A stretch of DNA of 64,000 nt, taken from Oxalobacteraceae bacterium (GTDB lineage: Bacteria; Pseudomonadota; Gammaproteobacteria; Burkholderiales; Burkholderiaceae_D). Positions 2,281-54,272 of the stretch are shown piece by piece. The notes beneath the pieces were generated by a model. It worked only from the letters and a program-made list of their open reading frames with translations, ran no database searches and was not told the DNA's origin. Numbering within the stretch: the first letter of the stretch is position 1; every line of letters starts with the position of its first letter. The DNA is taken from NCBI GenBank assembly GCA_900299005.1, contig OMID01000062.1, forward strand, positions 38,543 through 102,542, read 5' to 3'. Position numbers and translations under genes: made by a program.

Positions 2281-2407
2281 GGACGTGCTGATTTATTAAA
2301 ACTACCTGTTGTCCCCTGGGGAAAATACCGACACGTCGTTGAATTGAAGGGCCCGCGTCGCACGGCAACGAGGCCTCGTCATGCAAGCGGGTTTGTTCAA
2401 CATGGCC
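2281..2407 (-). mobile_element. MITE-like dispersed repeat, copy A (most diverged)
   Basis: Minus strand reads ...TTGAACAAACCCGCTTGCATGACGAGGCCTCGTTGCCGTGCGACGCGGGCCC...TTTTCCCCAGGGGACAAC...TTTTAATAAATCAGCACGTCC, colinear with copies B/C/E; plus-strand left end GGACGTGCTGATTTAT. Confidence 0.55.
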
Positions 2408-2502
2408 GCCTTGCCATCGACCAAAGTAGGCAGCCGCTTGGCATGATTTCTACAGAAACTATCGTGACGCAATGGTGTTAATTGCCGACTCTCGAGCACG
2501 AC

Positions 2503-3342
2503 TTATTGCCTTGCATTTCGAGCATTGGAGGGCATTTTTGACAGCGAAAAATTACTGCGCCAAGGGTTGATGTCAATGCCTCCCCGACGAGTGTAGCGTG
2601 CCAGCACCATCAGTTTGCTGGGGACGCACTGACGCAACAGATCCATAAAAATACGCTCCACGCACTGCTCGTGAAATTCCTGGTGCTCCCGAAAGCCGAT
2701 CAGGTACCTGAGCAAGCCCTCCTGATGGATGGCCGGACCCACATAATGAATTTGCACGCTGGCCCAGTCGGGCTGGTTGGTCACTAGGCAATTCGATTTC
2801 AGCAAGTGCGACACCAGCTTTTCCTCGACGGCGGCCTCATCGCGATTAGCGCTCAATAACGCTGGGTCCGGCCGGTAGCTGTCCACCTCAATATCCAGCC
2901 GGTCCAGTAGCAAGCCCTCCAGCTCGCCCATCCCCAGCCTGCCAAACTCGTCAGGTCCGCTCAGGCGCACTTGCACGGACGCCCCGACGGCGGCCGACAC
3001 ATCGTTGCGTAGCAGGTCGCTGAATGCCTCGAGGCTGGCGACGCGGGTCTGGTTCAGGGAATTGAGGTAGAGCTTGAGCGATTTGGACTCGACGATCTTG
3101 GGCGAGTCCGCGGGTACTTGCAGCGTGGCGATGGCGATTTGCGGTTTCCCTCGCAGGTTCAGCCATGAGACCTCATAGGCATTCCAGACATCCATCCCGA
3201 AAAAGGGTAGCGAGCTGGTGATGCCGAGTTCCGCGCGCTTTTCGGCGCGCAAGATAGGGAACAGCAGGCCGGGGTCGTAAGGGTGGTTGTAGACAGTGGT
3301 TTTGCCCAGTGGCGAGTCCGACGGAGGCGAGGCGAAAGTCAT
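2503..3342 (-). CDS. queF: NADPH-dependent 7-cyano-7-deazaguanine reductase (bimodular QueF)
   Basis: ESKSLKLYL QueF motif, [32 protein letters not shown]. Confidence 0.96.
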
Positions 3343-3419
3343 GAGAATCGTGTCGGGCTCAAGAGTGGAACAATCAGAGCAGTGGACAATGGTGGCGACG
3401 AAGCAGGCAGCGAATCAGC

Positions 3420-4943
3420 TTACAGGAATAGCCGGTAGGCCGGATTTAGACTCTCGTCCCAGCTGCGGTAGCCAATGGTTGACAGAAAATTACGAAAGGC
3501 TTTCATCTCGGTTTTAGGCACCTGGAGACCTACCAGCACTCGACCGACATCGCCCCCCTGATTGCGGTAGTGAAACAAACTGATGTTCCAGCCGGGTGCC
3601 AAGCTGTCGAGGAAGCGCATCAGCGCGCCGGGTCGTTCGGGGAACTCGAAGCGATACAACAGCTCTCCTCGCGCCAGGGGACTCTTGCCACCCACCAGAT
3701 GGCGGATGTGCAGTTTGGCCAGTTCATCATGTGTGAGATCGATGGTGGCAAAGCCCTGCTTCTGGAAAGTCTTGCAGATTTGTCCGGGCTCGTCCCGATT
3801 AGCCACTTGAAGACCGACGAACACATGGGCCAGTTGTTCATCGCTGATACGGTAGTTAAATTCCGTTACCGCCCGCGAACCAACGAGTTGGCAGAAGCGA
3901 CGGAAGCTGCCGCGCTCTTCGGGAATGGTCACTGCAAAGACAGCCTCATGCTCCTCACCAACCTCGGCGCGTTCGGCGACAAAGCGAAGGCGATCAAAAT
4001 TCATGTTTGCGCCGCACGCAATCGCGACCAGCGTTTCAGCGCGCAGAGGCTTTTTTTGTTTGATCGCGCGTTCTGCATAGGCTTTGGCACCGGCCACAGC
4101 TAACGCGCCGGCAGGCTCCAGAATGCTGCGTGTATCGGTAAACACATCTTTGATTGCCGCGCAGACGGCATCGGTATCGACAAGAATCATGTCGTCAACC
4201 ACTTGTTTGGCCAGCCGGAAGGTTTCTTCGCCTACCTGCTTGACGGCGGTACCATCGGAGAACAAGCCAACATCGTTCAGCATGACCCGACGACCCGTCT
4301 GCAGCGAACGCATCATTGCATCCGAGTCGGTAGTCTGCACGCCGATGATCTTGACTTCAGGTCGAACCGCTTTGATGTACGCGCCTACGCCGCCGATCAG
4401 GCCCCCGCCGCCCACGGCGACAAACACCGCATGAATCGGTCCGGGATGCTGACGCAGGATCTCCATGCCTATCGTGCCCTGACCCGCGATCACGTCGGGA
4501 TCGTCAAAGGGATGAACAAACGATAGCTTGTGTTTTTTTTCCAGAGCCAGCGCATGCTGGTAAGCATCGGAATATGAATCGCCGCTCAGCACCACCTCGG
4601 CGCCCCGCGCACGTACGGCATCGATCTTCACGGCGGGCGTGGTCGTCGGCATGACGATCACCGCGCGGCAGCCAAGGCGACTGGCCGACAGCGCGACGCC
4701 TTGCGCGTGGTTTCCAGCCGATGCGCAAATGACCCCACGCTTGAGCTGTGCTGCGGACAGCTGCGCCATCTTGTTATAGGCACCACGCAGCTTGAAGCTG
4801 AAAACGCTCTGCATGTCCTCGCGCTTGAAATAGATACGATTGCCCATCCGCTGTGACAGCGTGGTCGCTAGCTCGAGTGGCGTTTCTTCGGCAATGTCAT
4901 AAACCCGCGAAGTGAGGATTTTCTTCAGGTAATCGATACTCAT
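3420..4943 (-). CDS. ilvA: Biosynthetic threonine ammonia-lyase
   Basis: SFKLRGAYN PLP-lysine motif, ASAGNHAQG, C-terminal regulatory ACT-like repeats; probable start MSIDYLKKI at 4943. Confidence 0.97.
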   Translation of the reverse strand: MSIDYLKKILTSRVYDIAEETPLELATTLSQRMGNRIYFKREDMQSVFSFKLRGAYNKMAQLSAAQLKRGVICASAGNHAQGVALSASRLGCRAVIVMPTTTPAVKIDAVRARGAEVVLSGDSYSDAYQHALALEKKHKLSFVHPFDDPDVIAGQGTIGMEILRQHPGPIHAVFVAVGGGGLIGGVGAYIKAVRPEVKIIGVQTTDSDAMMRSLQTGRRVMLNDVGLFSDGTAVKQVGEETFRLAKQVVDDMILVDTDAVCAAIKDVFTDTRSILEPAGALAVAGAKAYAERAIKQKKPLRAETLVAIACGANMNFDRLRFVAERAEVGEEHEAVFAVTIPEERGSFRRFCQLVGSRAVTEFNYRISDEQLAHVFVGLQVANRDEPGQICKTFQKQGFATIDLTHDELAKLHIRHLVGGKSPLARGELLYRFEFPERPGALMRFLDSLAPGWNISLFHYRNQGGDVGRVLVGLQVPKTEMKAFRNFLSTIGYRSWDESLNPAYRLFL

Positions 4944-5059
4944 GGTGCGACCATTATAATTGAGCACCCGCTGTTCATCGGCAGGTCATCCACGGTGTTT
5001 GCCGAGCGCAAGGATGCCTGCCCGACGCTTGTTTTTTCTTCTCGTCTCTGGTCGCTTGC

Positions 5060-5548
5060 ATGCTGGATGCTGCTGTTGCTTATCTGCTGAGCCTGCTCTC
5101 GCTTCCCGAAGTCAGTCTGTCGGCGTTGTTTATCATCAGCGCACTGTCGGCCACGTTGCTGCCCATGGGTTCAGAGCCTGCCGTGTTTGCTGTCGTGAAG
5201 ATGAATGGATCCTTGTTCTGGCCAGCGGTGTTGGTGGCGACGGCCGGCAACACGCTCGGTGGCGTGATCACCTATGCGATGGGCTATGGAGCAAGGCATG
5301 CGCTCCATGACGCGCAACAACCACGATGCTTGGGTTGGCTTGTGCGTTTTGGGCCCAAAACCTTGTTGTTGTCCTGGCTGCCTCTGGTTGGCGACCCGCT
5401 GTGCGCGCTCGCTGGCTGGCTCGAACTCCCTTTCCTGCCCAGCGCCCTGTATATGGCGATGGGCAAGCTGCTGCGCTATCTGACCATCACCAGTTTGCTG
5501 GTCGCCGTGCCCAACGGCGTATGGCATCGGCTGCTACCCTGGATGTAG
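5060..5548 (+). CDS. YqaA/DedA-like (VTT domain) membrane protein
   Basis: SATLLPMGSE, GNTLGG, WLPLVGDPLC motifs; hydrophobic. Confidence 0.85.
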   Translation: MLDAAVAYLLSLLSLPEVSLSALFIISALSATLLPMGSEPAVFAVVKMNGSLFWPAVLVATAGNTLGGVITYAMGYGARHALHDAQQPRCLGWLVRFGPKTLLLSWLPLVGDPLCALAGWLELPFLPSALYMAMGKLLRYLTITSLLVAVPNGVWHRLLPWM

Positions 5549-5567
5549 GCGCATCGTGTGTCGGCGA

Positions 5568-5696
5568 GGCAGACGCTGAAAAAATCATGTTAGGGCGAGC
5601 CAGCATCACCGTGGGACGTGGGAGCCCGCCACTTCAAAAGCTTGCCGCTATTTCCCAAAGGAGAAATCTTGCGGTGTTTAATTATCCAGCGATGCC
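5568..5696 (+). mobile_element. MITE-like dispersed repeat, copy B
   Basis: 129 bp; ends GGCAGACGCTG...CAGCGATGCC; 55/65 nt identical to copy E over 5615-5679. Confidence 0.8.
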
Positions 5697-5721
5697 CAAG
5701 CTTATCCAGCGATGCCCAAGC
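5682..5721. repeat. Perfect 20-bp tandem duplication (TTATCCAGCGATGCCCAAGC x2)
   Basis: Read directly; spans the right terminus of repeat copy B. Confidence 0.95.
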
Positions 5722-5845
5722 TTAGCCCTCCAGGGCACTCTTCTCCGCCGGACATTCATCACTGTATAGCCCCAATCGACGCGCATGCTGCAGTGCGCTA
5801 CGTTAAAATGCGGCTTTATGAATCTCAGGCACCTGGTTTCCCTGA

Positions 5846-8800
5846 ATGAATGCCCCAGCGCACCTTCCTTCCCTGCTGACTGACGCACCGGAAGGCACCC
5901 AGCCTCCCCGATTGCGGGAAATTCCCTACAACTACACCTCGTTTTCCGATCGAGAGATCGTGATCCGGTTACTAGGCGGCAGCGCGTGGGAGCTATTGTG
6001 CAGCTTGCGCGCCGCGCGGCAGACCGGCCGTTCTGCGCGCATGCTCTACGAGGTCCTTGGCGACATCTGGGTGGTACGGCGCAACCCTTACCTTCAGGAT
6101 GATCTGCTGGACAATCCGGCTCGTCGCGAAGCCTTGATCGATGCGCTATATCACCGCTTGGGCGAAGTTGAACGTCGTCGTCAGAGCGCTGAAGACGATA
6201 AGCGTGCCGACCCGCTCACCCGTGAGCGCAATGCCAAGGTGGGTACCTTGCTCGAGGCCGGGCGCCAGGCTGTCGAAACATTCGCGCGCGAGTTCGTGCA
6301 GATGCAAGATTTGCGCCGCCGCGCCTTGCGTGTGCTGGGACGCCATACCGAGCGGGATAACCTCAAATTCGATGGGTTGTCGCGCGTCTCGCATGTCACT
6401 GATGCCACCGATTGGCGTGTGGAATATCCCTTCGTCGTGATCACGCCCGACACCGAAGAAGAAGTCGCCGGTCTGGTCAAGGCGTGCATCGAGCTCGGTC
6501 TGACCATTATCCCGCGTGGAGGTGGCACGGGCTACACCGGTGGCGCGATACCCCTGACCCCAATGTCTGCCGTCATCAATACTGAAAAACTCGATGCATT
6601 AAGTGAGCTTGAGTTGCGTCGCTTGCCCGGAGTTGAGCATGAGTGCGCGACCATCCATGCGGGTGCTGGCGTGGTGACCAAGCGTGTCGCCGATGCTGCC
6701 GAGAGAGCAGGTTTCGTGTTCGCCGTTGATCCCACCTCCGCAGAAGCTTCCTGCATCGGGGGCAATATCGCCATGAACGCGGGTGGCAAGAAAGCTGTGT
6801 TGTGGGGAACGGCGCTCGACAATCTTGCCAGCTGGCGGATGGTGGACCCGAATGGCGACTGGCTGGAAGTCACGCGCCTCGATCACAATTTGGGCAAGAT
6901 TCATGAGGTCGAAGTCGCGCGTTTTAAGCTCGAGTGGACGCACCCTGCCGAGCGCGGGCGGCCGAACGCACCTTTCAAAACCGAGATACTGTCCATCGAA
7001 GGCCAGCGGTTCCGCAAGGCGGGTCTCGGCAAGGATGTGACCGACAAATTCCTCGCCGGATTGCCCGGCGTGCAGAAAGAGGGCTGTGATGGTCTCATTA
7101 CGTCGGCGCGCTGGATATTGCACAAAATGCCCAGACACGCCCGCACCGTCTGCCTCGAGTTTTTCGGGCAAGCGCGCGAAGCCATTCCCTCCATCGTCGA
7201 GATCAAGGCTTATCTTGATGCTGAAACGAAGCAGGGCGGCGCGATACTCGCCGGCCTTGAACACCTCGATGAGCGCTACCTGAAAGCCGTTGGCTACGCG
7301 ACCAAATCCAAACGCGGCGTGCTGCCGAAGATGGCCCTATTCGGCGACATCGTTGGCGACGATGAGGAAGCCGTGGCGCGCGCGAGCTCCGAAGTCATCC
7401 GCATTGCCAATAGTCGCGTGGGCGAGGGCTTTGTGGCGGTCAGCTCCGAGGCGCGCAAGAAATTCTGGCTCGACCGTGCGCGCACAGCGGCTATCGCGCG
7501 CCACACCAATGCCTTCAAGATCAACGAAGACGTGGTGATACCGCTAGATCGTATGGGCGAGTACACCGATGGTATTGAGCGCATCAATATCGAACTTTCC
7601 ATGAGCAACAAGCTCGAGCTGCTCGCCGAGCTATCAGCCTACTTTGAACGCGGGCAACTCAAGCTGGGCAAAAGCGAAGACACCGAAGGCTTTGAAATTC
7701 CACCCGCTGAATTGCTCGAAAACCGCGTTGCCGAGGCGCTGTCACTCATCGAGAGCGTGCGCTCGCGCTGGACCTGGCTGCTGGCCAACGTCAATGGGCG
7801 CCTCTCTGATACCCGGCAGATGATAATCGAGTACGGTTGGGACAAGCTGCTGCCCGAGGTCGATGCACGTCTCGCCACTCAGCCGCTCGCTACCTGGTTC
7901 GATGTCTTGCAAGACCGCACCCTGCGCATCTCATGGAAGGCTGAGGTGCGCGCACCCTTGCGCCAGATCTTCGGAGGCGCCGCCTTCCGTCCCATCCTGG
8001 AGGAATGCAATGCGATCCACAAGCGCGTGCTGCGGGGGCGCGTTTTCGTCGCTCTCCACATGCATGCGGGCGATGGCAACGTGCATACCAATATCCCGGT
8101 CAACTCTGACAATTACACGATGCTGCAGACCGCGCATGCGGCAGTCGAGCGCATCATGGCGCTGGCGCGTTCGCTTGATGGCGTGATCTCCGGTGAGCAT
8201 GGTATTGGCATCACCAAGCTGGAGTTCCTCACCGATGCCGAGATCGGCGAATTCCGCGACTACAAACAGCGCATCGATCCCGACGGGCGCTTCAACAAGG
8301 GCAAGTTGCTCGATTCGCCCGACTTGCACGCCGATCTGCGCAATGCCTATACGCCGTCATTCGGCCTGATGGGTCATGAATCGCTCATCATGCAACAGAG
8401 CGATATCGGGGCCATTGCCAATAGCGTCAAGGACTGCCTGCGCTGCGGCAAGTGCAAACCGGTGTGCGCCACGCACGTGCCACGCGCGAATCTGCTGTAT
8501 TCACCCCGCAACAAGATACTTGCGACATCGCTGCTGATCGAGGCCTTCCTTTATGAAGAGCAGACCCGACGAGGTGTCTCGATACGGCACTGGGAAGAAT
8601 TCGAGGAGGTGGCTGACCATTGCACCGTCTGCCACAAATGTGCGACGCCGTGCCCGGTCGATATCGACTTCGGTGATGTATCGATGAACATGCGCAACCT
8701 GCTGCGCAAGATGGACAAGAAGTCCTTCAATCCCGGGACGGCAGCCTCCATGTTCTTCCTCAACGCGACGGATCCGGCCACCATCAATGCGACACGCCAG

Positions 8801-9847
8801 TTAATGATCGGCTGGGGGTACAAGGCGCAGCGTTTTGCCCATGACCTGCTCAAGAAATTCGCGAAAAAGCAGACCAAGGCGCCACCGTCTACGCATGGCA
8901 AACCCCCGGTGCGCGAGCAGGTGATTCATTTCGTGAATAAAAAAATGCCGGGCAACCTGCCGAAGAAGGCAGCGCGTGCGCTGCTGGATATTGACGACGA
9001 TAATTTCGTGCCCATCATCCGCGATCCCAAGTCCACCAGTGCGGACACCGAGGCGGTGTTTTATTTTCCAGGCTACGGCTCCGAGCGCTTGTTCTCGCAG
9101 GTGGGGTTGGCCACCCAGGCCATGCTATGGCATGTGGGTGTGCAGACCGTGCTACCGCCGGGCTATCTGTGCTGTGGCTACCCGCAGCGTGGCTCGGGCG
9201 ATTTCGATAAGGCCGAGAAGATCATCACCGATAATCGCGTGTTGTTCCACCGGGTAGCCAACACCCTGAACTACCTTGATATCAAAACGGTGGTTGTCTC
9301 CTGTGGCACCTGTTACGATCAGTTGCAGGGCTACGAATTCGACAAAATTTTCCCGGGCTGCCGCATTGTTGATATCCACGAGTACCTGCTTGAAAAAGGC
9401 GTCAGGCTTGAAGGGGTTAACGGCGTGCGTTACATGTATCACGATCCCTGCCACAGCCCGATGAAGCAGCAGGATCCTCTGAAGACCGTAAACAGCCTGA
9501 TCACTACCGCCGATGCACAAAAGATCGAAAAAAATGACCGTTGCTGCGGCGAGTCTGGCACTCTGGCGGTTGCGCGCCCGGATATCTCCACGCAGATACG
9601 GTTCCGCAAGGAAGCCGAGATGGTCAGGGGCGCTGACAAACTGCGTGCCGATGGTTTCAAGGGCGATCTGAAGATCCTCACCTCATGCCCCTCTTGTCTG
9701 CAGGGCTTGTCGCGCTTCGGCGATGACGCGGGCACCGAAGCTGATTACATCGTTGTCGAAATCGCTCGCCATCTGTTGGGTGAGAACTGGATGCTCGAGT
9801 ATGTCGCACGCGCCAACGATGGCGGCATCGAACGCGTGCTGGTCTGA
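5846..9847 (+). CDS. DUF3683-type FAD-binding / 4Fe-4S / CCG-domain oxidoreductase (1333 aa)
   Basis: N-terminal [29 protein letters not shown] and [15 protein letters not shown]-oxidase motifs; HAGDGNVH and [17 protein letters not shown] and [11 protein letters not shown] ferredoxin motifs; CCG motifs. Confidence 0.9.
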
Positions 9848-9849
9848 GC

Positions 9850-10290
9850 ATGACCCACCGTGTCCGAGCTTGCGAGCTTTGCGAGTCTGCTGGCGGCGAG
9901 GTGCTGCACCAGGGTGCGCGGTGTCGCGTCGTGCTGATCAACGATTCTCTGTACCCCGGATTTTGTCGAGTAATCTGGCATGATCATGTCAAGGAAGCGA
10001 CGGATCTCGGTGAGTCCGATCGCCTGCTGCTCATGGAGGTACTCTGGCAAGTCGAGCGCGTGGTGCGTGATGTGATGCAGCCTGAAAAGATCAACCTTGC
10101 CAGCTTCGGCAACATGGTGCCTCACTTGCACTGGCATGTCATACCGCGCTACGCCGATGATGCCCATTTCCCCTCGCCAGTCTGGGCCGAGGTCAGGCGA
10201 GAGGTGTCTGCGGATTCGCTCACCATGCGACATGAGCGCTTGCCCGCGCTGCGCAAGACCATGCATCAACGATTGTCCCTGTATCTGTAG
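9850..10290 (+). CDS. HIT family protein
   Basis: GNMVPHLHWHVIPR histidine triad; CxxC at the N-terminus. Confidence 0.9.
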   Translation: MTHRVRACELCESAGGEVLHQGARCRVVLINDSLYPGFCRVIWHDHVKEATDLGESDRLLLMEVLWQVERVVRDVMQPEKINLASFGNMVPHLHWHVIPRYADDAHFPSPVWAEVRREVSADSLTMRHERLPALRKTMHQRLSLYL

Positions 10291-10417
10291 ATCGGACCAG
10301 TTTATGCAAGCATCTGCGCTCGCCGCCGGCGCGCGGCATAATCATTCATTCTGCACAATGCCAACGCCTTGAGACGGGTTGCGGCATCCCTGTGCGGCCT
10401 CGTCACAGGAACCGATC

Positions 10418-10822
10418 ATGTCCGAGACACCTATCCCCAGTGCCCTAACTCTCCACAAGCGCTCGCGCATCCTCGAATTGAGTTACGGAGAACAGAGCTA
10501 TCAATTATCTTTCGAGTTCCTGCGCGTGTATTCACCCTCCGCCGAGGTGCGAGGCCACGGTCCGGGGCAGGCGGTGCTCCAGACGGGCAAGCGTGAGGTC
10601 GACATTACGGGAATTGAGCCGGTTGGTCACTATGCCATACGGCCGCTCTTCTCCGATGGACATGACAGCGGCATTTACTCATGGGATCTGCTGCATTCCT
10701 TTTGCCTGAATCAGTCGGCAATGTGGGAAGACTATTTATGCCAGCTCGAAGCAGCGGGCCACACCCGCGAGAGTGGGCGCGATGCGCCCGCGGGCAAGTC
10801 AGGGCGTGGTTGCGCATCTTGA
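10418..10822 (+). CDS. DUF971 / gamma-butyrobetaine hydroxylase-like N-terminal domain protein
   Basis: EFLRVYSPSAEVRGHG, GHYAI, FSDGHDSGIYSW; start MSETP at 10418. Confidence 0.88.
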   Translation: MSETPIPSALTLHKRSRILELSYGEQSYQLSFEFLRVYSPSAEVRGHGPGQAVLQTGKREVDITGIEPVGHYAIRPLFSDGHDSGIYSWDLLHSFCLNQSAMWEDYLCQLEAAGHTRESGRDAPAGKSGRGCAS

Positions 10823-10951
10823 GATGCGCTGCTTGAGGAGGCGGAGTGGGTTGACAACCTGTCCCAGTTGGGCATCGTGAGTGGCGACCTCATTACTTGT
10901 TCGCTTCGGATGGCAGCAGGGTCATGCGATCCGGCGCAATGAGCAGGCTTG

Positions 10952-10957
10952 TATAAT
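10952..10957 (+). promoter_or_regulatory. Consensus sigma70 -10 hexamer upstream of ubiE
   Basis: TATAAT 26 nt before the ubiE ATG in a GC-rich background; no clear -35. Confidence 0.45.
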
Positions 10958-10983
10958 GCGCTGCCAGCCCACCGAGTCCCGCA

Positions 10984-11715
10984 ATGACCCAGACATACTT
11001 CGGTTACGAGCAAGTTCACGAGCACGAGAAAGTCCACAAAGTGGCCGGCGTGTTCCACTCCGTTGCTGCCAACTATGATGTGATGAATGACCTGATGTCC
11101 GGGGGTCTCCACCGGCTGTGGAAGGCATTCACCGTGGCGCAGGCAGGCATACGTCCCGGCTGCAAAGTGCTCGATATTGCCGCCGGCACTGGCGATCTGA
11201 CGAGGGCTTTTGCAAAAAAAGCTGGGCCGACCGGCGAGGTCTGGCACACGGACATCAATGAATCCATGCTCAGGGTCGGTCGAGACAGGTTGATCAACGA
11301 AGGCTTCGTGCTGCCAAGCCTGATCTGCGATGCCGAGCGGCTACCCTTCCCGGACAATTACTTTGATCGTGTCTCGGTCGCTTTCGGGCTGCGTAACATG
11401 ACTCACAAAGACGCGGCGCTGGCGGAGATGCGGCGCGTGCTCAAACCCGGTGGCAAGCTGCTGGTGTTGGAATTTTCAAAAGTGACGCCGCTGCTCCGCA
11501 AGCCCTACGATCTCTACTCCTTCAAGGTACTCCCTTGGCTGGGCGATAAGATCGCGAATGATGCCGACAGCTACCGTTATCTGGCCGAATCGATACGCAT
11601 GCATCCCGATCAGGAAACCCTCAAAGGCATGATGGAGGACGCAGGGCTGGGCAGGGTCGACTATTTCAATCTGACCGGTGGCATCACGGCCTTGCATGTC
11701 GGCGTGAAGCTGTAG
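10984..11715 (+). CDS. ubiE: Demethylmenaquinone / ubiquinone C-methyltransferase
   Basis: [30 protein letters not shown] motif, [13 protein letters not shown]. Confidence 0.97.
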
Positions 11716-11750
11716 GTGCATCGATCTGTTCGCGTGGCACGGCACCCAAG

Positions 11751-11882
11751 GGCAGCGCTGCTTACTTAACCATCGCAAGATTTCTCCTTTGGGGAACTCG
11801 CTGCAAGCCTTTGACGTGGTAGGCTCCCGCATCGCACAGCGATGCTGGCTCCCCATAAAATGGGGTTCTTTTCAGCGTCTCC
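11751..11882 (-). mobile_element. MITE-like dispersed repeat, copy C
   Basis: 132 bp; plus-strand ends GGCAGCGCTG...CAGCGTCTCC; about 54/66 identity to the copy B core, including an identical CCCAAAGGAGAAATCTTGCG. Confidence 0.8.
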
Positions 11883-11893
11883 CCAACCCAATC

Positions 11894-12478
11894 ATGTCTG
11901 CATCCCCCCTGATCGCCGTGCTCAACCACCTGCTCTCCCGTGAGCCGCTGCTGACCGACTCGCTTGCAGCTCATGCGGGCAAATCGGCGCAGATTGACGC
12001 TGGCATTCGGCTGCGATTTGCAGTTGCGGCCGATGGCCTGCTGCAGGCTGTGGCCACTCAGACGGACGAGGCGAGCGTGACGATCAGCATTGCGCCGGCC
12101 GATTTGTCTCAGGTGCTGACCGATCCCGCGCGCGCGGCTTCCTTTGCCAAGGTCAGCGGTGATGCGGAGTTCGCGCGTGTCATGTCCGACGTGCTCACCC
12201 GACTCCGGTGGGACGCCGAGGCCGATCTTGCGCGCTTTGTGGGTGATATCGCCGCTGTTCGTATCGTAGAAGCAGCGCGAGCCATTGCGGCGCACACTCG
12301 TTCGGGGAGTCGGCGTCTGGCCGAGAATGTCGCTGAATATCTGCTCGAAGAAAATCCGATGCTGCTGCATCGTCGCGCGGGTCAGGATTTCGCTTCCGAC
12401 GTCGCAGTGCTCAGAGATGACGTCGAGCGGCTGGCAAAGCGTATCGCTTTGCTCGAAAAGCGCGGAGGTGCGGCATGA
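11894..12478 (+). CDS. ubiJ: Ubiquinone biosynthesis accessory factor UbiJ (SCP2 domain)
   Basis: [35 protein letters not shown] and a coiled-coil C-terminus; ATGA overlap with ubiB. Confidence 0.88.
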
Positions 12479-22703: not shown

Positions 22704-22738
22704 GGCTGCCGGATGAGGCGGTCTTGAGTGGTGCCCAG

Positions 22739-22876
22739 AACGACCCTGAATAAATTCAGGGTGTCGAGTAGTCATCATCGCTGTGCGTCGCAGGAGCTCA
22801 TCACATCGACGGCTTGTTGTCTTGCCATCAGCCTGGCGAGATAGGGTCTCAGGGTTTTTAATCAATCGGCATGTCT
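22739..22876 (+). mobile_element. MITE-like dispersed repeat, copy D (diverged)
   Basis: AGTCATCATCGCTGTGCGTCGCAGGAGCTCATCACATCGACGGCTTGTTG matches copy C at 37/50; begins CCCTGAATAAA and ends ...TTTAATCAATCGGCATGTC followed by TTAG. Confidence 0.6.
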
Positions 22877-25575: not shown

Positions 25576-25880
25576 GAAGCAGATCAGACAGTCGCCGGCG
25601 TGCGTGGCACGCGGGAGGAAGGTCCGGACTCCACAGAGCAGGGTGACGGCTAACGGCCGTCCGTCGTGAGGCGAGGAACAGGGCCACAGAGACGAGCGTA
25701 TTCAGTTACGGTGAAACGCGGTAACCTCCACCCGGAGCAATTCCAAATAGGCATGCAATGACGTGGCTCGCCTAGCATGCGGGTAGGAAGCTTGAGCGCC
25801 GGAGTAATTCGGCGCCTAGAGGAATGACTGTCAGGGCCGCGCAAGTGGTCTTACAGAATCCGGCCTATCGATCTGCTTCA
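25576..25880 (+). ncRNA. rnpB: RNase P RNA (bacterial type A)
   Basis: Terminal stem GAAGCAGATC/GATCTGCTTC; GAGGAAGGTCCGGACTCC, AGGGCCACAGA, GGTGAAACGCGGTAACCTCCAC, GGGTAGG, TAGAGGAATGACTG, ACAGAATCCGGCCTAT conserved elements. Confidence 0.97.
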
Positions 25881-25991
25881 CATGCTCTCTTTTTGCTCTG
25901 CCCAGGAGCTGCTGTGTGACTACCCAGCGCGATGAGTGGGTTGCCGGCCTGATGCGTCTTTGCCTGGGGTGCGGCTTGGCGGTGCGGTCTG

Positions 25992-43691: not shown

Positions 43692-44867
43692 ATGGAAATC
43701 GATATGCTGGAAACAACAAAAGGCACGATCATCAAAGTGGTAGGAGTCGGTGGTGCGGGCGGCAACGCTGTGCAGCACATGATCAACAAAGGCGTATCCG
43801 GGGTCGAATTCATTGTCGCCAACACGGATGCGCAAGCCTTGCACAACTCCAAGGCGCATAACGTGATCCAGATCGGCGAATCCGGTCTGGGCGCAGGCAT
43901 GAAGCCGGCGCTGGGGCGTCAGTTAGCCGAAGAAACCCGTGACCGTATCGAAGATGCGCTGCGGGGTGCGCACATGGTTTTCATCGCAGCAGGTATGGGG
44001 GGTGGCACGGGCACCGGCGCCGCACCGATCGTTGCGCAGGTTGCAAAAGAGCTGGGTGCGCTGACCGTCGCTGTCGTGTCCAAGCCGTTCACTTACGAAG
44101 GCAAGAAGTGCATGGATATCGCCAATGAAGGCCTTGACGAGCTGGGCAAACACGTCGATTCACTGATCGTGATTCTCAACGAGAAGCTCGAAGAGATCTA
44201 CGAAGACGACAGCATGGTCGAGTGGCTGCAGCATGCCGACGATGTGCTCAACAATGCGGTGGCCGGCATTGCTGAAATCATTAATGTGCCGGGCCATATC
44301 AACGTGGACTTCAACGATGTGAAAACCATCATGGCTGAGCAGGGCAAGGCGATGATGGGCACGGCAGTCGCCGCTGGCGTAGACCGTGCGCGCATCGCTG
44401 CCGAGCAGGCGATCGCGTCGCCGCTATTGGATGGCATCGATCTTTCTGGTGCGCGTGGCGTGCTGGTCAATGTGACGGGTAGTCGTTCGCTCAAGGGCAA
44501 GGAGATCAAGGAAGTCATGGCCACCGTGCGCGCCTTCGCCGCCGAAGACGCGTCGATTGCCCAGGGGATTGCCTATGATGAATCGATGGGTGACGAGATT
44601 CGCGTCACGGTCGTCGCGACCGGCCTGGGCCGCGCACGTCGCACCCCGCAATTGGTCTCCAATCCCGTCGCCGTGCAGCGCACTGGCACCTACAACGAGC
44701 CTGTTGCGGGCAGCGATGCGGTACCCGGCGCGAACCAGACTTTTGATCCCATTCGCACACCGGCCGTCTGGCGTCGTGAATCAGCCTCTGAGACAGTGCG
44801 TGCCATGGAGCGCAACGGCACGGAAACCTACGATATCCCGGCGTTTTTGCGGCGGCAAGCGGATTGA
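43692..44867 (+). CDS. ftsZ: Cell division protein FtsZ
   Basis: VVGVGGAGGNA, GMGGGTGTG tubulin signature, DIPAFLRRQAD tail. Confidence 0.98.
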   Translation: MEIDMLETTKGTIIKVVGVGGAGGNAVQHMINKGVSGVEFIVANTDAQALHNSKAHNVIQIGESGLGAGMKPALGRQLAEETRDRIEDALRGAHMVFIAAGMGGGTGTGAAPIVAQVAKELGALTVAVVSKPFTYEGKKCMDIANEGLDELGKHVDSLIVILNEKLEEIYEDDSMVEWLQHADDVLNNAVAGIAEIINVPGHINVDFNDVKTIMAEQGKAMMGTAVAAGVDRARIAAEQAIASPLLDGIDLSGARGVLVNVTGSRSLKGKEIKEVMATVRAFAAEDASIAQGIAYDESMGDEIRVTVVATGLGRARRTPQLVSNPVAVQRTGTYNEPVAGSDAVPGANQTFDPIRTPAVWRRESASETVRAMERNGTETYDIPAFLRRQAD

Positions 44868-45006
44868 GCCAGTCGCAGGGCTGCAAGAAACTGGCAGGCA
44901 AGGCATACTAGCGCCGAGCAACCGCGTCCGATGGCAACATCCGGGCGCGGTTTCATTTCCCGCCTCGCGCCACCTCCATGTCCTGTTCATAGAAAGGGAA
45001 GAGAAA

Positions 45007-45510
45007 ATGACCATCAAAGTCGGAGACCATCTGCCTGAAGGCAAACTCGCCGAGTTCATCGAAACCGAAACCGAAGGTTGCACGCTCGGACCGAACACGT
45101 TCAACGTATCTGACCTAGTCAAGGGCAAGACAATCGCCATTTTTGGTCTGCCAGGGGCTTATACGCCGACCTGTTCGGCCAAACATGTGCCCGGCTACGT
45201 CGAGCATGAAAAGGCCCTCAAGGCCAAAGGCGTCGATGAAATCTGGTGCATCTCGGTCAATGATGCGTTCGTGATGGGCGCATGGGGCCGCGATCAAAAG
45301 GCAACCGGCATCGTACGTATGATGGCTGATGGCAATGCCGATTTTTCAAAGGCGATTGGCTTGTCCGCCGACTTTAGTCAATTCGGCATGGGCACACGCT
45401 CGCAACGCTATTCGATGCTGGTAAAAGATGGCGTTGTCGAGCACCTCAATGTCGAAGCCCCCGGCAAATTTGAAGTGTCGAACGCCGAAACCATGCTCGC
45501 CCAGCTCTAG
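45007..45510 (+). CDS. Peroxiredoxin (Prx5-like)
   Basis: PGAYTPTCS, SVNDAFVM, RSQRYSM; start MTIKVGD at 45007. Confidence 0.93.
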   Translation: MTIKVGDHLPEGKLAEFIETETEGCTLGPNTFNVSDLVKGKTIAIFGLPGAYTPTCSAKHVPGYVEHEKALKAKGVDEIWCISVNDAFVMGAWGRDQKATGIVRMMADGNADFSKAIGLSADFSQFGMGTRSQRYSMLVKDGVVEHLNVEAPGKFEVSNAETMLAQL

Positions 45511-45639
45511 GAAGAGACTGAAAAACCCCCTGTGATGACGAACGAGCACCGCTGTGCGACGTGGGGGCCTGCCACATCAAAGACTTGCAGTGATACCCCA
45601 AAGGAGAAATCTTGCGGTGTTTGATCAACCAGCGTTTCC
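45511..45639 (+). mobile_element. MITE-like dispersed repeat, copy E
   Basis: 129 bp; preceded by CTAG (contains the peroxiredoxin stop codon), ends CAGCGTTTCC; 55/65 identical to the copy B core. Confidence 0.8.
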
Positions 45640-45672
45640 CCGGCAGCGGACCAGACTAATGGCAGGCCGCCA

Positions 45673-46608
45673 ATGATCCGACAACGCACCATCAACCAGA
45701 CCGTCAGCACCACGGGTGTCGGCCTGCACTGTGGCACGCGCGTTGAGTTGACGTTGCGGCCGGCCCCGGTGAACGCCGGCATCGTATTCCGACGTGTCGA
45801 TGTGAACCCGCCCGTTGAACTGCCGGCCAATGCGCTGGCTGTTGGCGACACTCGCATGGCATCGGTGCTGGAAAAAGAAGGTGTCCGTGTCTCCACTGTT
45901 GAGCACCTCATGTCGGCCTGTGCAGGCCTGGGCATCGACAACCTCTGTGTCGATCTCACGGCAGAAGAGATTCCCATTATGGATGGCTCGGCAGCTTCCT
46001 TCGTTTTTTTGTTGCAGCAGGCCGGTCGCAGCGAGCAGGATGCAGCGAAAAAATTCATCCGCGTGCTCCGACCGGTGGAAGTCCGCGAGGGCGAAGGCGC
46101 GCACGAGAAGTGGGCTCGCCTGGAGCCTTGCCATGGATTTCGGCTCAAGTTCTTCATTGAGTTCAATCATCCTGCCATTGATGGCAGCGGTCAGACCGCC
46201 GAGGTTGATCTCTCGTTCGAGTCGTACATTCAGGAAATCGCGCGGGCGCGTACCTTTGGTTTCATGCAAGACGTGGAAACCTTGCGTGGCATGGGTCTGG
46301 CCCGCGGCGGTTCTCTCGAAAATGCGATCGTGATGGACGAGTTCCGGATTCTTAATGCCGGCGGCCTGCGCTACCGTAACGAATTCGTTCGCCACAAGAT
46401 TCTTGATGCCATGGGTGACCTGTATCTGGCCGGACATCCGCTGCTCGCCAGTTACACGGCGCACAAATCAGGCCATGGATTAAACAATAAATTGCTGCGT
46501 GCGCTGCTCGCCGACGATACCGCGTACGACATCGTCACGTTCAATAATGCAGCCGCGGCACCCGCCGCATACTCGACGCAGCTGGAACAGGAATGGCTTG
46601 CCGCCTGA
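45673..46608 (+). CDS. lpxC: UDP-3-O-acyl-N-acetylglucosamine deacetylase
   Basis: [45 protein letters not shown]. Confidence 0.97.
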
Positions 46609-46639
46609 TCGCGCACTGGGCCACCTGCATGCCGCATCC

Positions 46640-47536
46640 TTGAGCGATCTTCCCCCCTCGAACCAGGAGCCTCGCTTCGCACTGGCCTCACTGCTGACCG
46701 GTAGCGTGATCTGGGGGTTTACCTGGCTGCCACTGAAGTATTTTGCCAATGTCGGTCTGGATGGTCATGCCGTCTCGCTCACCGCCTACGTGCTGGTCGC
46801 GCTGGTGGCGCTACCGTTCATCTGGCGTGAACGTGGCCAATGGCGCAGTGAGACCCACTGGCTGATAGTCATCGGTCTGTGCTTTGGCATCGCCAATGTG
46901 GGCCTGACGATTGCGCTGATGTCCGGATCGGTGGTGCGGGTGATGTTGCTGTTTTTTCTGTTGCCGGCTTGGGGTGCACTCGGCGGCGCAGTTTTTCTGA
47001 ACGAATCGCTGGACCGTCGCCGGGTGGCGGCCGTCGTCTTGTCGCTGGCCGGCGTGTTCGTGATCGTGGGCGGCGTACGCGCGCTGGAGGGGTTGCCCAC
47101 GGTCGCTGATCTTGCGGCATTCATCGCGGGTATCAGCTACACCGGTGCCGGCATAGCCAACCGCAAGGCCCGACGCATACCCATCACCAGCCGAACGCTT
47201 TCCTCTTTTGTCGGTTGCGCGGTGCTGGCCGTGGCGGGGCTGGCGGTGTCGTCTCCTGCCATTCCCGGCTTGTCGCCGATGATCTGGTGGCTGCTCGCCG
47301 GATTCTCTTTTTGCTGGTTGCTCGGCGCTGGTTTGCTGACCACCTATGGCCTCACGCATGTGCAGGCCAGTCGGGCAGCGGTGTTTCAGATTGTCGAGCT
47401 GCTGGTGGCGGTAGTGTCGGCAGTACTGATAGGCAAAGAGCTGCTGACCTTGAGCGATTATGCGGGTGGCGCGCTCATTCTGGCAGCCACGATCATTGAG
47501 GCATTGCCAAGATCGGTGCAGTCATCCCTTGCCTGA
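46640..47536 (+). CDS. DMT/EamA family transporter
   Basis: GSVIWG...PLK, LFFLLPAW...FLNESL, two EamA-like halves; start uncertain (TTG 46640). Confidence 0.82.
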   Translation: MSDLPPSNQEPRFALASLLTGSVIWGFTWLPLKYFANVGLDGHAVSLTAYVLVALVALPFIWRERGQWRSETHWLIVIGLCFGIANVGLTIALMSGSVVRVMLLFFLLPAWGALGGAVFLNESLDRRRVAAVVLSLAGVFVIVGGVRALEGLPTVADLAAFIAGISYTGAGIANRKARRIPITSRTLSSFVGCAVLAVAGLAVSSPAIPGLSPMIWWLLAGFSFCWLLGAGLLTTYGLTHVQASRAAVFQIVELLVAVVSAVLIGKELLTLSDYAGGALILAATIIEALPRSVQSSLA

Positions 47537-48031
47537 ATAGGGGGCGCGGCGCGCCAGCAGGGTGCGCAAGGCATGGCGTAATTCCGCATTGCGTGGATCC
47601 TGTTCGAGCGTGGTTTCCAGCTCGGCGAAGGAGGCCAGCGCGGCGTTCGGCAGATCCTGCTTTTTTGGTGCGGGTGGCCTTGGCAGGCGCTCAGGCATCA
47701 CCTGTACCTTGAGCCGAATGTCTTCGATGGGCCAGCCGTTTTCCCTGAGACCGGCGGCGAGCCGAGGAAGTTGTTGCCGCAGCCGAGTGGCCAAGGCTGC
47801 GTTCGGCACCGCGATCTGCAGCTGCCCCTTATCCAGATGCACGACGCGGCACAACGCGAGCGTCTGCGGCTGCAAGCGTTCGCAGGCCTGCTGCAACTGT
47901 GCAAGCCGGCTGGCCGTGGGCAGCAGGCCACCAAGTCTGTCGGTCGATCGCAAAAAATCCATGGCCTCACGCGCATCGGTGCGGGCCTCCGGGCGGCGAA
48001 AAGGCGTGAAATTCGGCGAAAACTTGGACAT
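47522..48031 (-). CDS. dciA: DUF721 / DciA-like protein
   Basis: LQIAVPNAALATRLRQQLPRL...IRLKVQ; standard position between lpxC and secA; start ~48031. Confidence 0.8.
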   Translation of the reverse strand: MSKFSPNFTPFRRPEARTDAREAMDFLRSTDRLGGLLPTASRLAQLQQACERLQPQTLALCRVVHLDKGQLQIAVPNAALATRLRQQLPRLAAGLRENGWPIEDIRLKVQVMPERLPRPPAPKKQDLPNAALASFAELETTLEQDPRNAELRHALRTLLARRAPYSGKG

Positions 48032-48161
48032 CCGGCGACCATAGCACAGGCGATCATGCTCGGGTGGGGGTCGTACGGTTGGCAAGGGGCTGCGTGATAG
48101 AATCGCGCCTTTCGCTGTCGGGCGGGCGCCTGCAGCAAGCCTCCTTTTCCGCTAGCAAAGC

Positions 48162-50915
<2,754 letters not shown>

Positions 50916-51101
50916 TCTGGCAGCCAGTGGCCAAGGTGACGACGTAAAGACGCCGGACCCCGGCGGCTGCCGGGACGACGGTTCAGGCCGTCGGCGATGT
51001 CAGTCCTCCCCTCGACGCAAGTCGGGAGCGGGGGCTACTTTGGCACTTGGCTGGTGCCGCAGGCAGGACAAGCTCACCCTTTTGACCCCACAGGTATCCT
51101 C

Positions 51102-52328
51102 ATGGCAGTCAATCTTCCCTTACCCATTCCCGAGCATCTCACCCCGATCAAAGGGCTGCAGCTGGGTTGCGCCGAAGCCGGCATCAAGAAGCCCGGCCGC
51201 AAAGACCTCCTGCTGATGACGCTGGCACCCACGGCAACGGTCGCCGGGGTATTCACGACCAACCGCTTTTGTGCCGCGCCAGTGCAGGTATCGAAACAGC
51301 ATCTGGCAAGTGGCAAAGGGATTCGGGCACTGGTGATCAACACCGGCAATGCCAATGCCGGCACCGGCGAGCCAGGACTGGTGAATGCGAACATGACCTG
51401 TAATGCGGTCGCCACGCTGCTGGGCTGCGATGCGGCGCAAGTACTGCCGTTTTCAACGGGGGTGATTCTTGAGCCCCTGCCGGTGGATCGCATCCTTGCT
51501 GGCCTGCCGGCTGCGCAGGCGAACATGAAAGAGGACAACTGGTACAACGCAGCGGAATGCATCATGACGACGGACACCCAGCCGAAGGCAGCTTCCCGTA
51601 CGGCTGTAATTGCAGGCAAGGCGGTGACGCTTACGGGTATTTCCAAAGGTGCCGGCATGATCAAGCCCAACATGGCGACCATGCTGGGCTATGTTGCCTG
51701 CGATGCCACAGTACCCCAGCCAGTGCTCGAGCAGATTGTCCGACGCGCCGCCGATGCTTCGTTCAATTGCATCACGATTGATGGTGACACCTCGACCAAT
51801 GATTCGTTCATATTGATCGCAACGGGTGCTGGCGAATTGATCATCCGTGACGCAGAGGCTCCCGAATGCAAGGCACTCGAAGCGGTCATTATGGATTTGT
51901 CCCAGGAACTCGCGCAGATGATCGTTCGTGACGGCGAGGGCGCGACCAAATTCATCACCGTGCGCGTCGAGCAAGGGCGCGATGTGGAGGAATGCCGCAA
52001 GATCGCCTACGCGATCGGCCATTCGCCGCTGGTGAAAACAGCTTTCTTTGCATCGGATCCGAACCTTGGCCGCATTCTTGCGGCCATCGGCTATGCGGGC
52101 GTGACCGATCTCGATGTGGGCATGCTGGATCTGTATCTGGATGATGTGTGGGTTGCCAGACAAGGTGGGCGCCATCCGGACTACCGTGAAGAAGAGGGAC
52201 AGCGCGTGATGAAGCAGAGCGAGATCACCGTGCGGGTTACACTGGCACGTGGCACGGCTTCGGCAACCATCTGGACATGCGATCTGTCGCATGACTATGT
52301 GTCTATCAATGCAGACTACCGTTCCTGA
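51102..52328 (+). CDS. argJ: Bifunctional ornithine acetyltransferase / N-acetylglutamate synthase
   Basis: [52 protein letters not shown]; start 51102. Confidence 0.96.
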
Positions 52329-52438
52329 TCGCTCATTTGCCGGCCTATTTTTAAAATCTCTGGATACTGGTCAGTTCCCCGCGAGGGCTGGAGACTCGCC
52401 GTTGCCCAGTGTCGTTCCCGAACCAGAACAACAACGAC

Positions 52439-53305
52439 ATGAAAGAACTCGAACAATTTCTCCTTCGCGCCGAATCGGTGCTTGCGCGTGTGGAGAAGCT
52501 GCTACCCGCTCCAGCACCCGAGATCGATTGGAGTGCGACAGCCTTCCGCTGGCGCGTGAATCGTGATAGCCGCGGCCATCTGCAGGCGGTACCGCATCCC
52601 TCGCGCATCCGTCTTGAAGACTTGCGCAATATCGCTCCACAAAAACACGCAATCGAGCAGAATACAAAGCAATTCCTGGAGGGTCGCCCGGCTAACAATG
52701 TGTTGCTGACCGGTGCGCGCGGCACAGGCAAATCCTCGTTGATCAAGGCTTGTCTGGCGCAATTTGCGGATCAGGGGTTGCGGCTGATCGAGGTCGATAA
52801 AGCGCATCTGGTTGATCTGCCCGATATTGTCGAGCTGATTGAACAGCGCGACGAGCGTTTCATCCTCTTCTGCGATGACCTCTCATTTGAGGAAGGTGAG
52901 AGCGGCTACAAGGCACTGAAGGTGGCATTGGATGGCAGCATCTCATCACAGTCTGACAATGTGCTGATTTACGCGACCTCGAATCGCCGTCATTTGCTGC
53001 CAGAAAAAATATCGGATAACGACGGCTATCGGCATGTCGATGATGGTGACTTGCATCCGGGTGAGACGGTCGAAGAAAAAATTTCTCTCTCCGAGCGTTT
53101 CGGACTGTGGCTCTCCTTCTACCCTTTCCGCCAGGAGGATTATCTCGATATCGTCCATCATTGGCTCAGGCATTTTGGCGTGCCATCGTCGGCGTTCGAC
53201 GAGGCGGATGCCGAGGCCTTGCGCTGGGCCTTGCAGCGCGGCTCACGCTCGGGACGTATCGCCTGGCAATTTGCACGCGACTGGGCCGGCAAGCGCACCG
53301 CATAA
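52439..53305 (+). CDS. DUF815-type AAA+ ATPase
   Basis: LLTGARGTGKSS, FCDDLSF, YATSNRRHL, KISLSERFGLW, RSGRIAWQF. Confidence 0.9.
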   Translation: MKELEQFLLRAESVLARVEKLLPAPAPEIDWSATAFRWRVNRDSRGHLQAVPHPSRIRLEDLRNIAPQKHAIEQNTKQFLEGRPANNVLLTGARGTGKSSLIKACLAQFADQGLRLIEVDKAHLVDLPDIVELIEQRDERFILFCDDLSFEEGESGYKALKVALDGSISSQSDNVLIYATSNRRHLLPEKISDNDGYRHVDDGDLHPGETVEEKISLSERFGLWLSFYPFRQEDYLDIVHHWLRHFGVPSSAFDEADAEALRWALQRGSRSGRIAWQFARDWAGKRTA

Positions 53306-53307
53306 CC

Positions 53308-53706
53308 ATGACCAAGCCGATTGATGTCGCCGTTGGCATCCTGATGAAGCCTAATGGCGATGTGCTGATGGGCCAACGTCCCGAAGGCAAGCCGTATGCA
53401 GGGTATTGGGAATTCCCGGGCGGTAAAGTCGAAACTGGCGAGAGCGTACTTGATGCGCTCAAGCGCGAATTTGCCGAAGAGATCGGCGTGCAGATTCTCG
53501 CTGCAGAGCCCTGGTGCGGCGTCGAGCATGTGTATCCCCATGCGCATGTGCGACTGCATTTTTATATCAGCCGTTGCTGGCAGGGTGAGCCGCATGGGCT
53601 CGAAGGTCAACAACTGGCCTGGCAGGGAAGCTTTGAGGTGACGCCAATGCTGCCGGCGACCCTGCCCTTGCTGCAGTGGCTGGAGGTGCAGCGATGCCCA
53701 GGCTGA
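53308..53706 (+). CDS. Nudix hydrolase, MutT-like
   Basis: QRPEGKPYAGYWEFPGGKVE...LKREFAEEIG; start MTKPIDVAVG at 53308. Confidence 0.9.
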   Translation: MTKPIDVAVGILMKPNGDVLMGQRPEGKPYAGYWEFPGGKVETGESVLDALKREFAEEIGVQILAAEPWCGVEHVYPHAHVRLHFYISRCWQGEPHGLEGQQLAWQGSFEVTPMLPATLPLLQWLEVQRCPG

Positions 53707-53760
53707 CCCATCAGCGTGCCGCGCTGTTGGCAGGCCGATGATCAAGACATGAGCGCTGCC

Positions 53761-54048
53761 TCAGGCGGACCTGTCCGGTTGCCAGCTGATGCGGATATCG
53801 CTCGCCGCTCCGCCTCCCATCACCGGGCTTGCCTGAGCCATGAATATCACGCTTGCATTGGGTGTGGGCGTCTGCTGGGTCATCGGATGTGCAATCGTAT
53901 TGAGAGTCGTATCGGTGTAATGGGCTGATTGCGGATATTTCTCGATTGAAAAGTGCCAGTGCTTTCTTTCCATCGTCTTTTCTATTTTTTCAGTCCACTC
54001 GCCAGGGGCGTTAATGCTTCCGCGAAAAATCAATGTGCTGACATCCAT
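53761..54048 (-). CDS. Hypothetical protein (95 aa, orphan)
   Basis: AAGGAG RBS 6 nt before ATG; fills an intergenic gap; no recognisable motif. Confidence 0.45.
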   Translation of the reverse strand: MDVSTLIFRGSINAPGEWTEKIEKTMERKHWHFSIEKYPQSAHYTDTTLNTIAHPMTQQTPTPNASVIFMAQASPVMGGGAASDIRISWQPDRSA

Positions 54049-54141
54049 GAGAGCTCCTTGTAATCGTCAACCATGATGATGGCGAGAAGTGATCCTCTGT
54101 AGACCAACGGCTCTCCCGATGATGCCTCGATGGTGTGCTAG

Positions 54142-54272
54142 GCACATGATGATGCATGAAGCACCGCCAGATTGCTTCTTTGGGAAATCCCTGCGCGCCT
54201 TTGACAAGGCAGGCTCGCGTGTCGCACTGCGATGCGGTCTCGCCATAACATGGGGTATTTTTCAGCGCCTAC
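54142..54272 (-). mobile_element. MITE-like dispersed repeat, copy F
   Basis: Minus strand GCGCTGAAAAATACCCCATGTTATGGCGAG...ATTTCCCAAAGAAGCAATCTGGCGGTGCTT (26/30 to the copy B core); flanked by CTAG at 54138-54141. Confidence 0.75.

Follow-up and report, generated by a model that had tools for sequence, protein, structure and literature searches.

Six intergenic segments of the 64-kb stretch of Oxalobacteraceae DNA analysed here (the window, always taken at its full length), which we name A to F, very probably descend from old insertions of a small IS5-type transposon that cannot move by itself, a miniature inverted-repeat transposable element (MITE), and are now decaying. The family is of an ordinary kind, and it appears to be undescribed. 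An initial annotation, made from the letters of the window, had proposed an old non-autonomous family derived from the insertion sequence (IS) IS5, and this proposal is supported by terminal repeats starting with GG, by TTAG on both sides of copies in other organisms, by empty sites in relatives, by an internal deletion derivative and by ends that resemble those of IS5 and of MITEPsy1.

MAFFT places all six segments in one colinear alignment of about 135 columns, and the nhmmer profile derived from this alignment gives exactly six matches in the window and no seventh copy, the next-best match having an E-value of 0.08. The boundaries first drawn by eye proved right to within 1-4 nt, and the nhmmer coordinates of the copies are the following.

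2280-2411, minus strand: copy A, between the queF stop (2503) and the start of a ptsN-like EIIA gene (2081), co-oriented with both.
5567-5697, plus strand: copy B, 19-20 nt past the stop of a DedA/VTT-domain gene (5548).
11750-11883, minus strand: copy C, with ubiE (stop 11715) on one side and the ubiJ-like/ubiB genes on the other.
22737-22876, plus strand: copy D, 34-35 nt past the stop of a TetR-family gene (22703) and upstream of an acyl-CoA dehydrogenase gene (22998).
45509-45640, plus strand: copy E, with the element at 45511-45639 and, counting the target positions, 45507-45643.
54141-54274, minus strand: copy F, 17 nt past the yacG stop (54292) and co-oriented with yacG.

Since a profile finds its own members by construction, we built six leave-one-out nhmmer profiles, each of them without the copy under test. 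The E-values obtained were 6e-29 or lower for B, C and E, 1.5e-22 for F, 3e-13 for A and 1.1e-8 for D. Copies A and D, whose alignment had been feared to be at chance level, are thus real homologues, because profiles that never contained them still recover them. B, C, E and F share 70-80% pairwise identity, A reaches about 60% and D 51-57%; the identities first estimated by eye hold, as does a 26-nt stretch identical in B and E, and a repeat finder independently recovers the pairs B/E, B/C, C/E and C/D. The copies are 128-140 bp long, and the longest internal reading frame, read from the consensus, has about 19 codons. The estimate of about one copy per 10 kb is correct inside the window (six in 64 kb), but not beyond it: a profile search of the 7.5 kb past either end (15 kb of new sequence) returned no copy, and no IS lies there either, which means that copy density outside the window is lower than one per 10 kb.

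The mobile character of the family is most evident in other organisms. A search with a degenerate left-half pattern yielded 20 further copies, located on 16 metagenome contigs of 53-58% GC. In these contigs the elements are 131-132 bp long and have sharp ends. The consensus of a 21-sequence alignment runs from TTAG and GGAGACGCTGAATAAATCC at the left to TTTATTTAATCAGCGCTTCC and TTAG at the right; in brief, the ends are GGAGACGCTGAATAAAT after the left TTAG and ATTTAATCAGCGCTTCC before the right one, with GGAGACGCTGAAT and ATTCAGCGCTTCC as the short end strings. They form a terminal inverted repeat of approximately 17 bp starting with GG, whose arms, GGAGACGCTGAATAAAT and GGAAGCGCTGATTAAAT, agree at 14 of 17 positions. 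In the window copies these arms are weaker and have a CGCTG/CAGCG core, the short imperfect inverted repeat which had been noticed at the outset and which is present in the alignment. TTAG stands on both sides of five of the 14 full-length copies of relatives, and on one side of most others, against a background of 0.00077 per position in those contigs (in the window, the YTAR tetranucleotides occur at 0.0004-0.0006 each); the flanks of family elements are TTAG, and sometimes CTAG or CTAA.

Two arrangements bear on how the element moves. In contig L086, two full-length copies lie head to tail at 3446-3712, in a divergent promoter region, and share one TTAG; a third copy is found 1.2 kb from this tandem, and therefore the family looks recently active in that organism. 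In loci L009 and L094, a 78-bp copy has lost internal sequence, keeping the left half and the right end, with both ends intact; the L009 copy was first found as a partial profile match in a related metagenome-assembled genome (MAG). The terminal repeats, the fixed 4-bp target, the tandem insertion and the deletion derivative with both its ends are together the signature of a DNA transposon without genes, i.e., of a MITE.

Further scans delimit the family. A search for CCCAAAGRAGMAATCTKGCGRTG, a 23-nt pattern based on the right halves of copies B, C, E and F, gives no match in 185,579 species genomes of GTDB, and a nearly identical pattern has none in the JGI metagenome contigs; the right-half subfamily of the window is therefore scarce in those collections, if present at all. 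The left-half pattern gives no match in viral contigs, and a BLAST search with the consensus finds none among the 72,556 plasmids of PLSDB. The right half differs by subfamily, reading CCCAAAGGAGAAATCTTGCGGTG in the window and CTTGCCACAAAAGTTTCCG in the metagenome copies, and the better-conserved left half, CGTTTTATGGCGAGCCAGCGTCGCTGTGCGACGCGGGG, spans alignment columns 28-66 approximately, across subfamilies and hosts.

Orthologous sites lacking the element were found for both copies inspected in this respect. The E site is empty in all 13 relatives examined (LpxC 76-93% identical): in them, the peroxiredoxin ends at the same residue, mostly with TAA, and is followed by approximately 10-45 nt before lpxC in the closest relatives and by as many as about 130 nt in others. 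At the F site, 26 relatives have no element: in them, yacG and the NUDIX gene are convergent neighbours typically some 40-100 bp apart, with no profile match between them. Among 80 related loci (1.35 Mb), the profile search finds a copy, short and at a different place, in L009 only, and this patchy distribution fits a mobile element. In the four DNA metagenomes containing the organism, no contig skips E, and no empty allele is seen within the population. In the window, 585 bp separate the stops of the NUDIX gene and yacG (53707-54292), a stretch which contains F and which is missing in relatives. The same spacer holds a called open reading frame (ORF) of 95 amino acids on the minus strand (53761-54048), for which the 26 relatives have no match at either the protein or the DNA level; this is probably additional lineage-specific inserted DNA.

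The assignment to the IS5 group relies on the ends and on the target. IS5-group elements duplicate 4 bp at YTAR targets, even though the IS5 copy that we read in Escherichia coli K-12 did not show such a duplication. The ends of IS5, read from the same genome, are GGAAGGTGCGAACAAG and GGAAGGTGCGAATAAG, and, allowing one gap, the left end of the family agrees with the IS5 end at 14 of 20 positions. Partial similarity to GGAAGGTGCGAA of IS5 and to GGAAGGTCTGAAAAA of MITEPsy1 is seen in the right arm, GGAAGCGCTGA, and the left arm, GGAGACGCTGA. MITEPsy1, from Pseudomonas syringae pv. phaseolicola, is 100 nt long with 18-nt repeats, GGAAGGTCTGAAAAAGCC, and is thought to derive from ISPsy2, a member of the IS5 family; its transposition, with duplication of 4 nt at CTAG or YTAA, has been shown experimentally (PMC3189936).

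In this genome, the copies bear the marks of age. Their target duplications survive as one-sided remnants, namely CTAG at the left of E, TTAG at the right of D and CTAG at the right of F (54138-54141), three copies in all, as many as had been reported to abut CTAG or TTAG; copy A has no recognisable duplication. The 51-80% pairwise identity, the weakened arms and the decayed duplications indicate that the copies are old. D, the most diverged of them, also has an internal insertion of 8 nt. The left end of B is GGCAGACGCTGAAAAAAT, and its right end is duplicated in tandem, the 20-bp unit TTATCCAGCGATGCCCAAGC occurring at 5682-5701 and again at 5702-5721 (the whole feature being 5682-5725, plus strand); strains L103, L104 and L105 have a single TTATCCAGCGATGCCCAAGC unit, which makes this a length polymorphism within the species. 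The TTAG at 5722-5725, just after the tandem, may be the right target duplication of B.

The drift is visible between strains in copy E, where 3 of 129 positions differ between two strains, compared with 12 of 6807 in the flanks, that is, about 10 times faster. Two of the three differences, in the right arm, make the other strain more like the family consensus, which is what decay of the window copy would produce. The strain variants, at 45526, 45626 and 45635, consist of a poly-C length difference and two substitutions, and are also found in metatranscriptome contigs. Regarding copy number, E-like sequence occurs on 16-27 contigs in each of the four DNA metagenomes, and in run X1 the depths over the part of E that is best conserved add up to 545, against 19-23 in unique flanks (approximately 25 times); as a lower bound, the organism has at least roughly 20-25 E-like copies.

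On this basis, we propose that the element, about 131-132 bp long, encoding no protein and with an inverted repeat of about 17 bp at each end, would move as a non-autonomous unit, both of its ends being recognised in trans by a DDE transposase of the IS5 group encoded by a full-length IS elsewhere. It would insert at the rare TTAG (YTAR) tetranucleotide and duplicate those 4 bp. Insertions within genes would be removed by selection, and the survivors would be those in short spacers, often at or just after stop codons; in E, the duplication itself would now supply the stop codon of the peroxiredoxin gene. The insertions in this genome would be old, and the copies, probably no longer mobile, would be passively carried and transcribed within the surrounding operons while drifting at about the neutral rate.

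The position of the copies next to stop codons is well accounted for by this model. The distance to the nearest stop codon is 0 nt for E, 17 for F, 19-20 for B, 34-35 for D, 34 for C (which is inverted) and 91 for A. The copies lie near stop codons because YTAR always includes TAA or TAG, because YTAR sites are 7-9 times less frequent in this genome than expected by chance, because genic insertions are lost and because the original spacers were short. The closeness to stop codons described by the initial annotation is thus confirmed, but it loses its value as a sign of domestication, being explained by the YTAR target and the short spacers. In E, the left CTAG (45507-45510) includes the TAG stop of the peroxiredoxin (AhpC/Redoxin) gene and is directly followed by the first base of the element, so that the duplicated target now provides this stop codon; the right target position has decayed to CCGG, the lpxC ATG is at 45673, and the element fills the space between both genes. 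The same has happened elsewhere: in 5 of 20 family copies, the TTAG, CTAG or CTAA duplication forms the stop (TAG or TAA) of an adjoining ORF with 100 codons or more, as follows.

Window, 45507-45510: stop supplied by the duplication at copy E.
L086, 2257-2259: stop supplied by the duplication.
L087, 3715-3717: stop supplied by the duplication.
L089, 6405-6407: stop supplied by the duplication.
L098, 1372-1374: stop supplied by the duplication.

In L098, a second ORF appears to end within the left arm of the element.

Copy E is also transcribed with its neighbours. A 548-nt metatranscriptome contig spans 45319-45867, covering the peroxiredoxin gene, E and lpxC, and E is thus read through, a requirement if lpxC relies on transcription from upstream. 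This read-through is passive transcription and not evidence of function. RNA coverage over C is nil, in data too sparse to judge termination.

Several observations weigh against the IS5-type MITE interpretation. No window copy has matching duplications on both sides, and the mobile-element signature rests on the copies of other organisms. The likeness to the IS5 ends is modest, and the flanks taken alone would also fit an IS630-type event, with TA duplicated within a TTAG target. Across subfamilies, conservation is much stronger in the left half, TTTTATGGCGAGCCAGCGTCGCTGTGCGACGCGGGG, than in the right one, which may reflect the end region of the parent IS. Regarding the partner, a tblastn search with E. 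coli InsH gives no match in the window, where the absence of a transposase had already been remarked, nor in about 1.6 Mb of fetched loci; the searches of plasmids and of viral contigs show no partner either, and fuzzy matching of the terminal repeats over all loci returns only chance-level singletons outside the elements. The comparison with IS5 thus yielded ends that partly resemble those of the IS, but no autonomous partner in the sequence searched. Finally, the metatranscriptome evidence comes from assembled contigs, which may include contaminating DNA.

Among the alternatives, it is unlikely that the family, while derived from a MITE, has been recruited, with sense copies serving as RNA elements of 3' untranslated or intercistronic regions (in mRNA stability or processing) and antisense copies as terminators or attenuators. 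This is the idea of domestication as a regulatory or RNA element which had accompanied the first description, and orientation is the main reason to consider it. According to the gene calls, A, B, D and E are sense and C is antisense within co-directional gene pairs, B being also co-oriented with the DUF3683 FAD/Fe-S oxidase gene downstream of it (5846), and F is sense to yacG, which bears out, as regards the gene upstream, the earlier statement that five of the six copies are oriented as the flanking genes. Adding three copies of other contigs (L088, L089a and L089b), the co-directional contexts amount to seven sense copies and one antisense (two-sided binomial p about 0.07), a 7:1 bias that is no more than suggestive. 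Recruitment would also agree with the transcription of E together with its neighbours, with the preservation of old copies at full length, and with the features of C, the sole window copy that opposes the direction of its flanking genes: the mRNA strand there, between ubiE and the ubiJ-like/ubiB genes, carries a terminator-like hairpin, CCCCATAAAATGGGG, followed by a T-run, TTCTTTTCAG (11851-11875, plus strand), and, in the element orientation, C is the only copy folding clearly better than its shuffles (z = -3.0).

However, a structure common to the family is lacking. RNAalifold gives -3.4 kcal/mol for 21 copies in the sense orientation and -2.5 kcal/mol for 20 copies in the antisense one, the predicted pairs being limited to CGCTG/CAGCG at the ends and to a small stem inside, and covariation terms are near zero on both strands. 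Compared with shuffled sequences in the element orientation, z-scores of -0.04 to -1.5 were obtained for the five copies other than C; the outliers on the opposite strand are C (-3.0) and B (-2.2). At gathering thresholds, Rfam finds RNase P alone in the window, and permissive scans of E and of the three L086 copies return nothing credible. A match to an already described Rfam family, one of the cases foreseen as removing novelty, was not found. Moreover, E evolves faster between strains than its flanks, contrary to what recruitment supposes, and relatives thrive without elements at the E and F sites. Domestication thus finds no support in structure, covariation, Rfam or strain divergence, which leaves a weak bias of orientation as its sole backing.

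Two narrower candidates for a function were rejected. An intrinsic terminator is not a property of the family, since a convincing hairpin with a T-run exists only in C, on the reverse strand. A small ORF, suggested in the window subfamily by a Shine-Dalgarno-like AAAGGAG followed by TTG or GTG, was discarded because its frames are not conserved past the element and the motif is missing in the other subfamily.

A related and likewise improbable idea is that the TTAG/CTAG target makes this a systematic stop-codon-seeking element which rebuilds the 3' ends of genes, with the left half, TTTTATGGCGAGCCAGCGTCGCTGTGCGACGCGGGG, as functional cargo. If this were true, the cargo would be a protein-binding site or a sense RNA module in operon transcripts, and this would explain the orientation bias.

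It is very unlikely that the MITE was moved instead by a transposase of the IS630/Tc1-mariner type acting at NTAN (here TTAG) and duplicating the central TA only. IS630 targets CTAG and duplicates TA, and the filled site, xTTA-GGG...CCT-TAGy, and the empty site, xTTAGy, are identical under both models. Under the IS630 model, however, the terminal bases of the element would be G and T, a non-complementary pair, whereas a 4-bp duplication leaves GGA...TCC and equal arms before CGCTGA. Furthermore, the ends resemble those of IS5 and of the IS5-derived MITEPsy1 (GGAAGG..CTGAAAAA), for which the 4-nt duplication is experimental.

Finally, it is hardly credible that these are paralogous small RNA genes or intergenic protein-binding sites, non-mobile and duplicated within the lineage. 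In favour of this idea, many copies contain a small palindrome in the core GCGTCGC-TGT-GCGACGC, with one compensatory pair in C (GCATCGC/GCGATGC), and the elements occupy transcribed intergenic regions. However, this palindrome is broken without compensation in many copies, Rfam offers no match, and transposition has left its hallmarks in the TTAG duplications, the inverted ends, the tandem insertion, the deletion derivative and the patchiness (1 of 80 loci); the target duplications and the empty sites already largely refute the idea.

The window belongs to an uncultured freshwater member of the Oxalobacteraceae/Burkholderiales. Its GC content is 58%, and its housekeeping genes include the dcw cell-division cluster, secA and ubiE/ubiB, among others; a class A bacterial RNase P RNA (25576-25883, plus strand, 243 bits) lies just upstream of the dcw cluster (about 27-45 kb). 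The LpxC encoded next to E is found, identical, on metagenome contigs of several samples. In the 185,579 species genomes its best matches are uncultured Oxalobacteraceae/Burkholderiaceae MAGs (88-93% identity), and cultured Noviherbaspirillum, Herbaspirillum and Collimonas have 76-78% identity. The sequencing runs containing the window sequence are labelled as freshwater or aquatic metagenomes.

The IS5-type MITE described here opens no new kind of biology. It adds a family for the annotation of uncultured freshwater Burkholderiales, with no counterpart in Rfam or among the PLSDB plasmids, and it explains assembly breaks at intergenic repeats in these organisms; one assembly contig terminates within copy C. 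It also represents a clean natural case in which a YTAR target lands an IS5-type element on stop codons, lengthening operon spacers, one of them directly upstream of the essential lpxC and with no sign of blocked transcription. Limited literature searches on IS5, YTAR and MITEs in Burkholderiales returned nothing specific, and MITEPsy1 is the closest described analogue.

Both MITEPsy1 and the present family are approximately 100-130 nt long and without ORF, and have a terminal inverted repeat of 17-18 nt which starts with GG.AG and contains CTGAAAAA, copy B having GG.AG..CTGAAAAA in common with MITEPsy1. They also share a 4-nt duplication at CTAG/YTAA-type targets, and a mostly intergenic location or one at the 3' ends of genes. 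However, no similarity is detectable past the ends (the BLAST search of plasmids with the consensus was empty, even though relatives of MITEPsy1 are reported there), the family measures 131-132 bp instead of 100 nt and prefers TTAG, it resides in an uncultured betaproteobacterium from fresh water, and in this genome its copies show age and decay instead of activity. The termini of E. coli IS5, like those of the family, start with GGAAG and contain AATAA, but IS5 is 1195 bp long and encodes the InsH transposase, whereas the elements described here, of about 130 bp, are non-coding and depend on a partner.

Other families of short elements were considered and ruled out. Tn3-derived TIME elements have repeats of about 38 bp starting with GGGG and a 5-bp duplication, compared with the repeat of about 17 bp and the 4-bp TTAG duplication found here; the ends and duplication of Correia (CREE)-type elements differ, and those of the family do not fit integron attC sites or REP/BIME. 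There is, nevertheless, a likeness in lifestyle to the ERIC/IRU elements of enterobacteria and to the Correia elements (CREE/NEMIS) of Neisseria, which are about 100-160 bp long, have inverted ends and reside in transcribed intergenic regions, co-transcribed with their neighbours, often just downstream of genes and in either orientation. Contrary to the family, Correia elements have 26-bp repeats, TA duplication, IHF sites and promoters (TA/TATA duplications, PMC9330008), ERIC elements are without a defined 4-bp TTAG duplication, and neither of them has sequence similarity to the elements of the window, in which the long hairpin spanning the whole ERIC or Correia element is not conserved.

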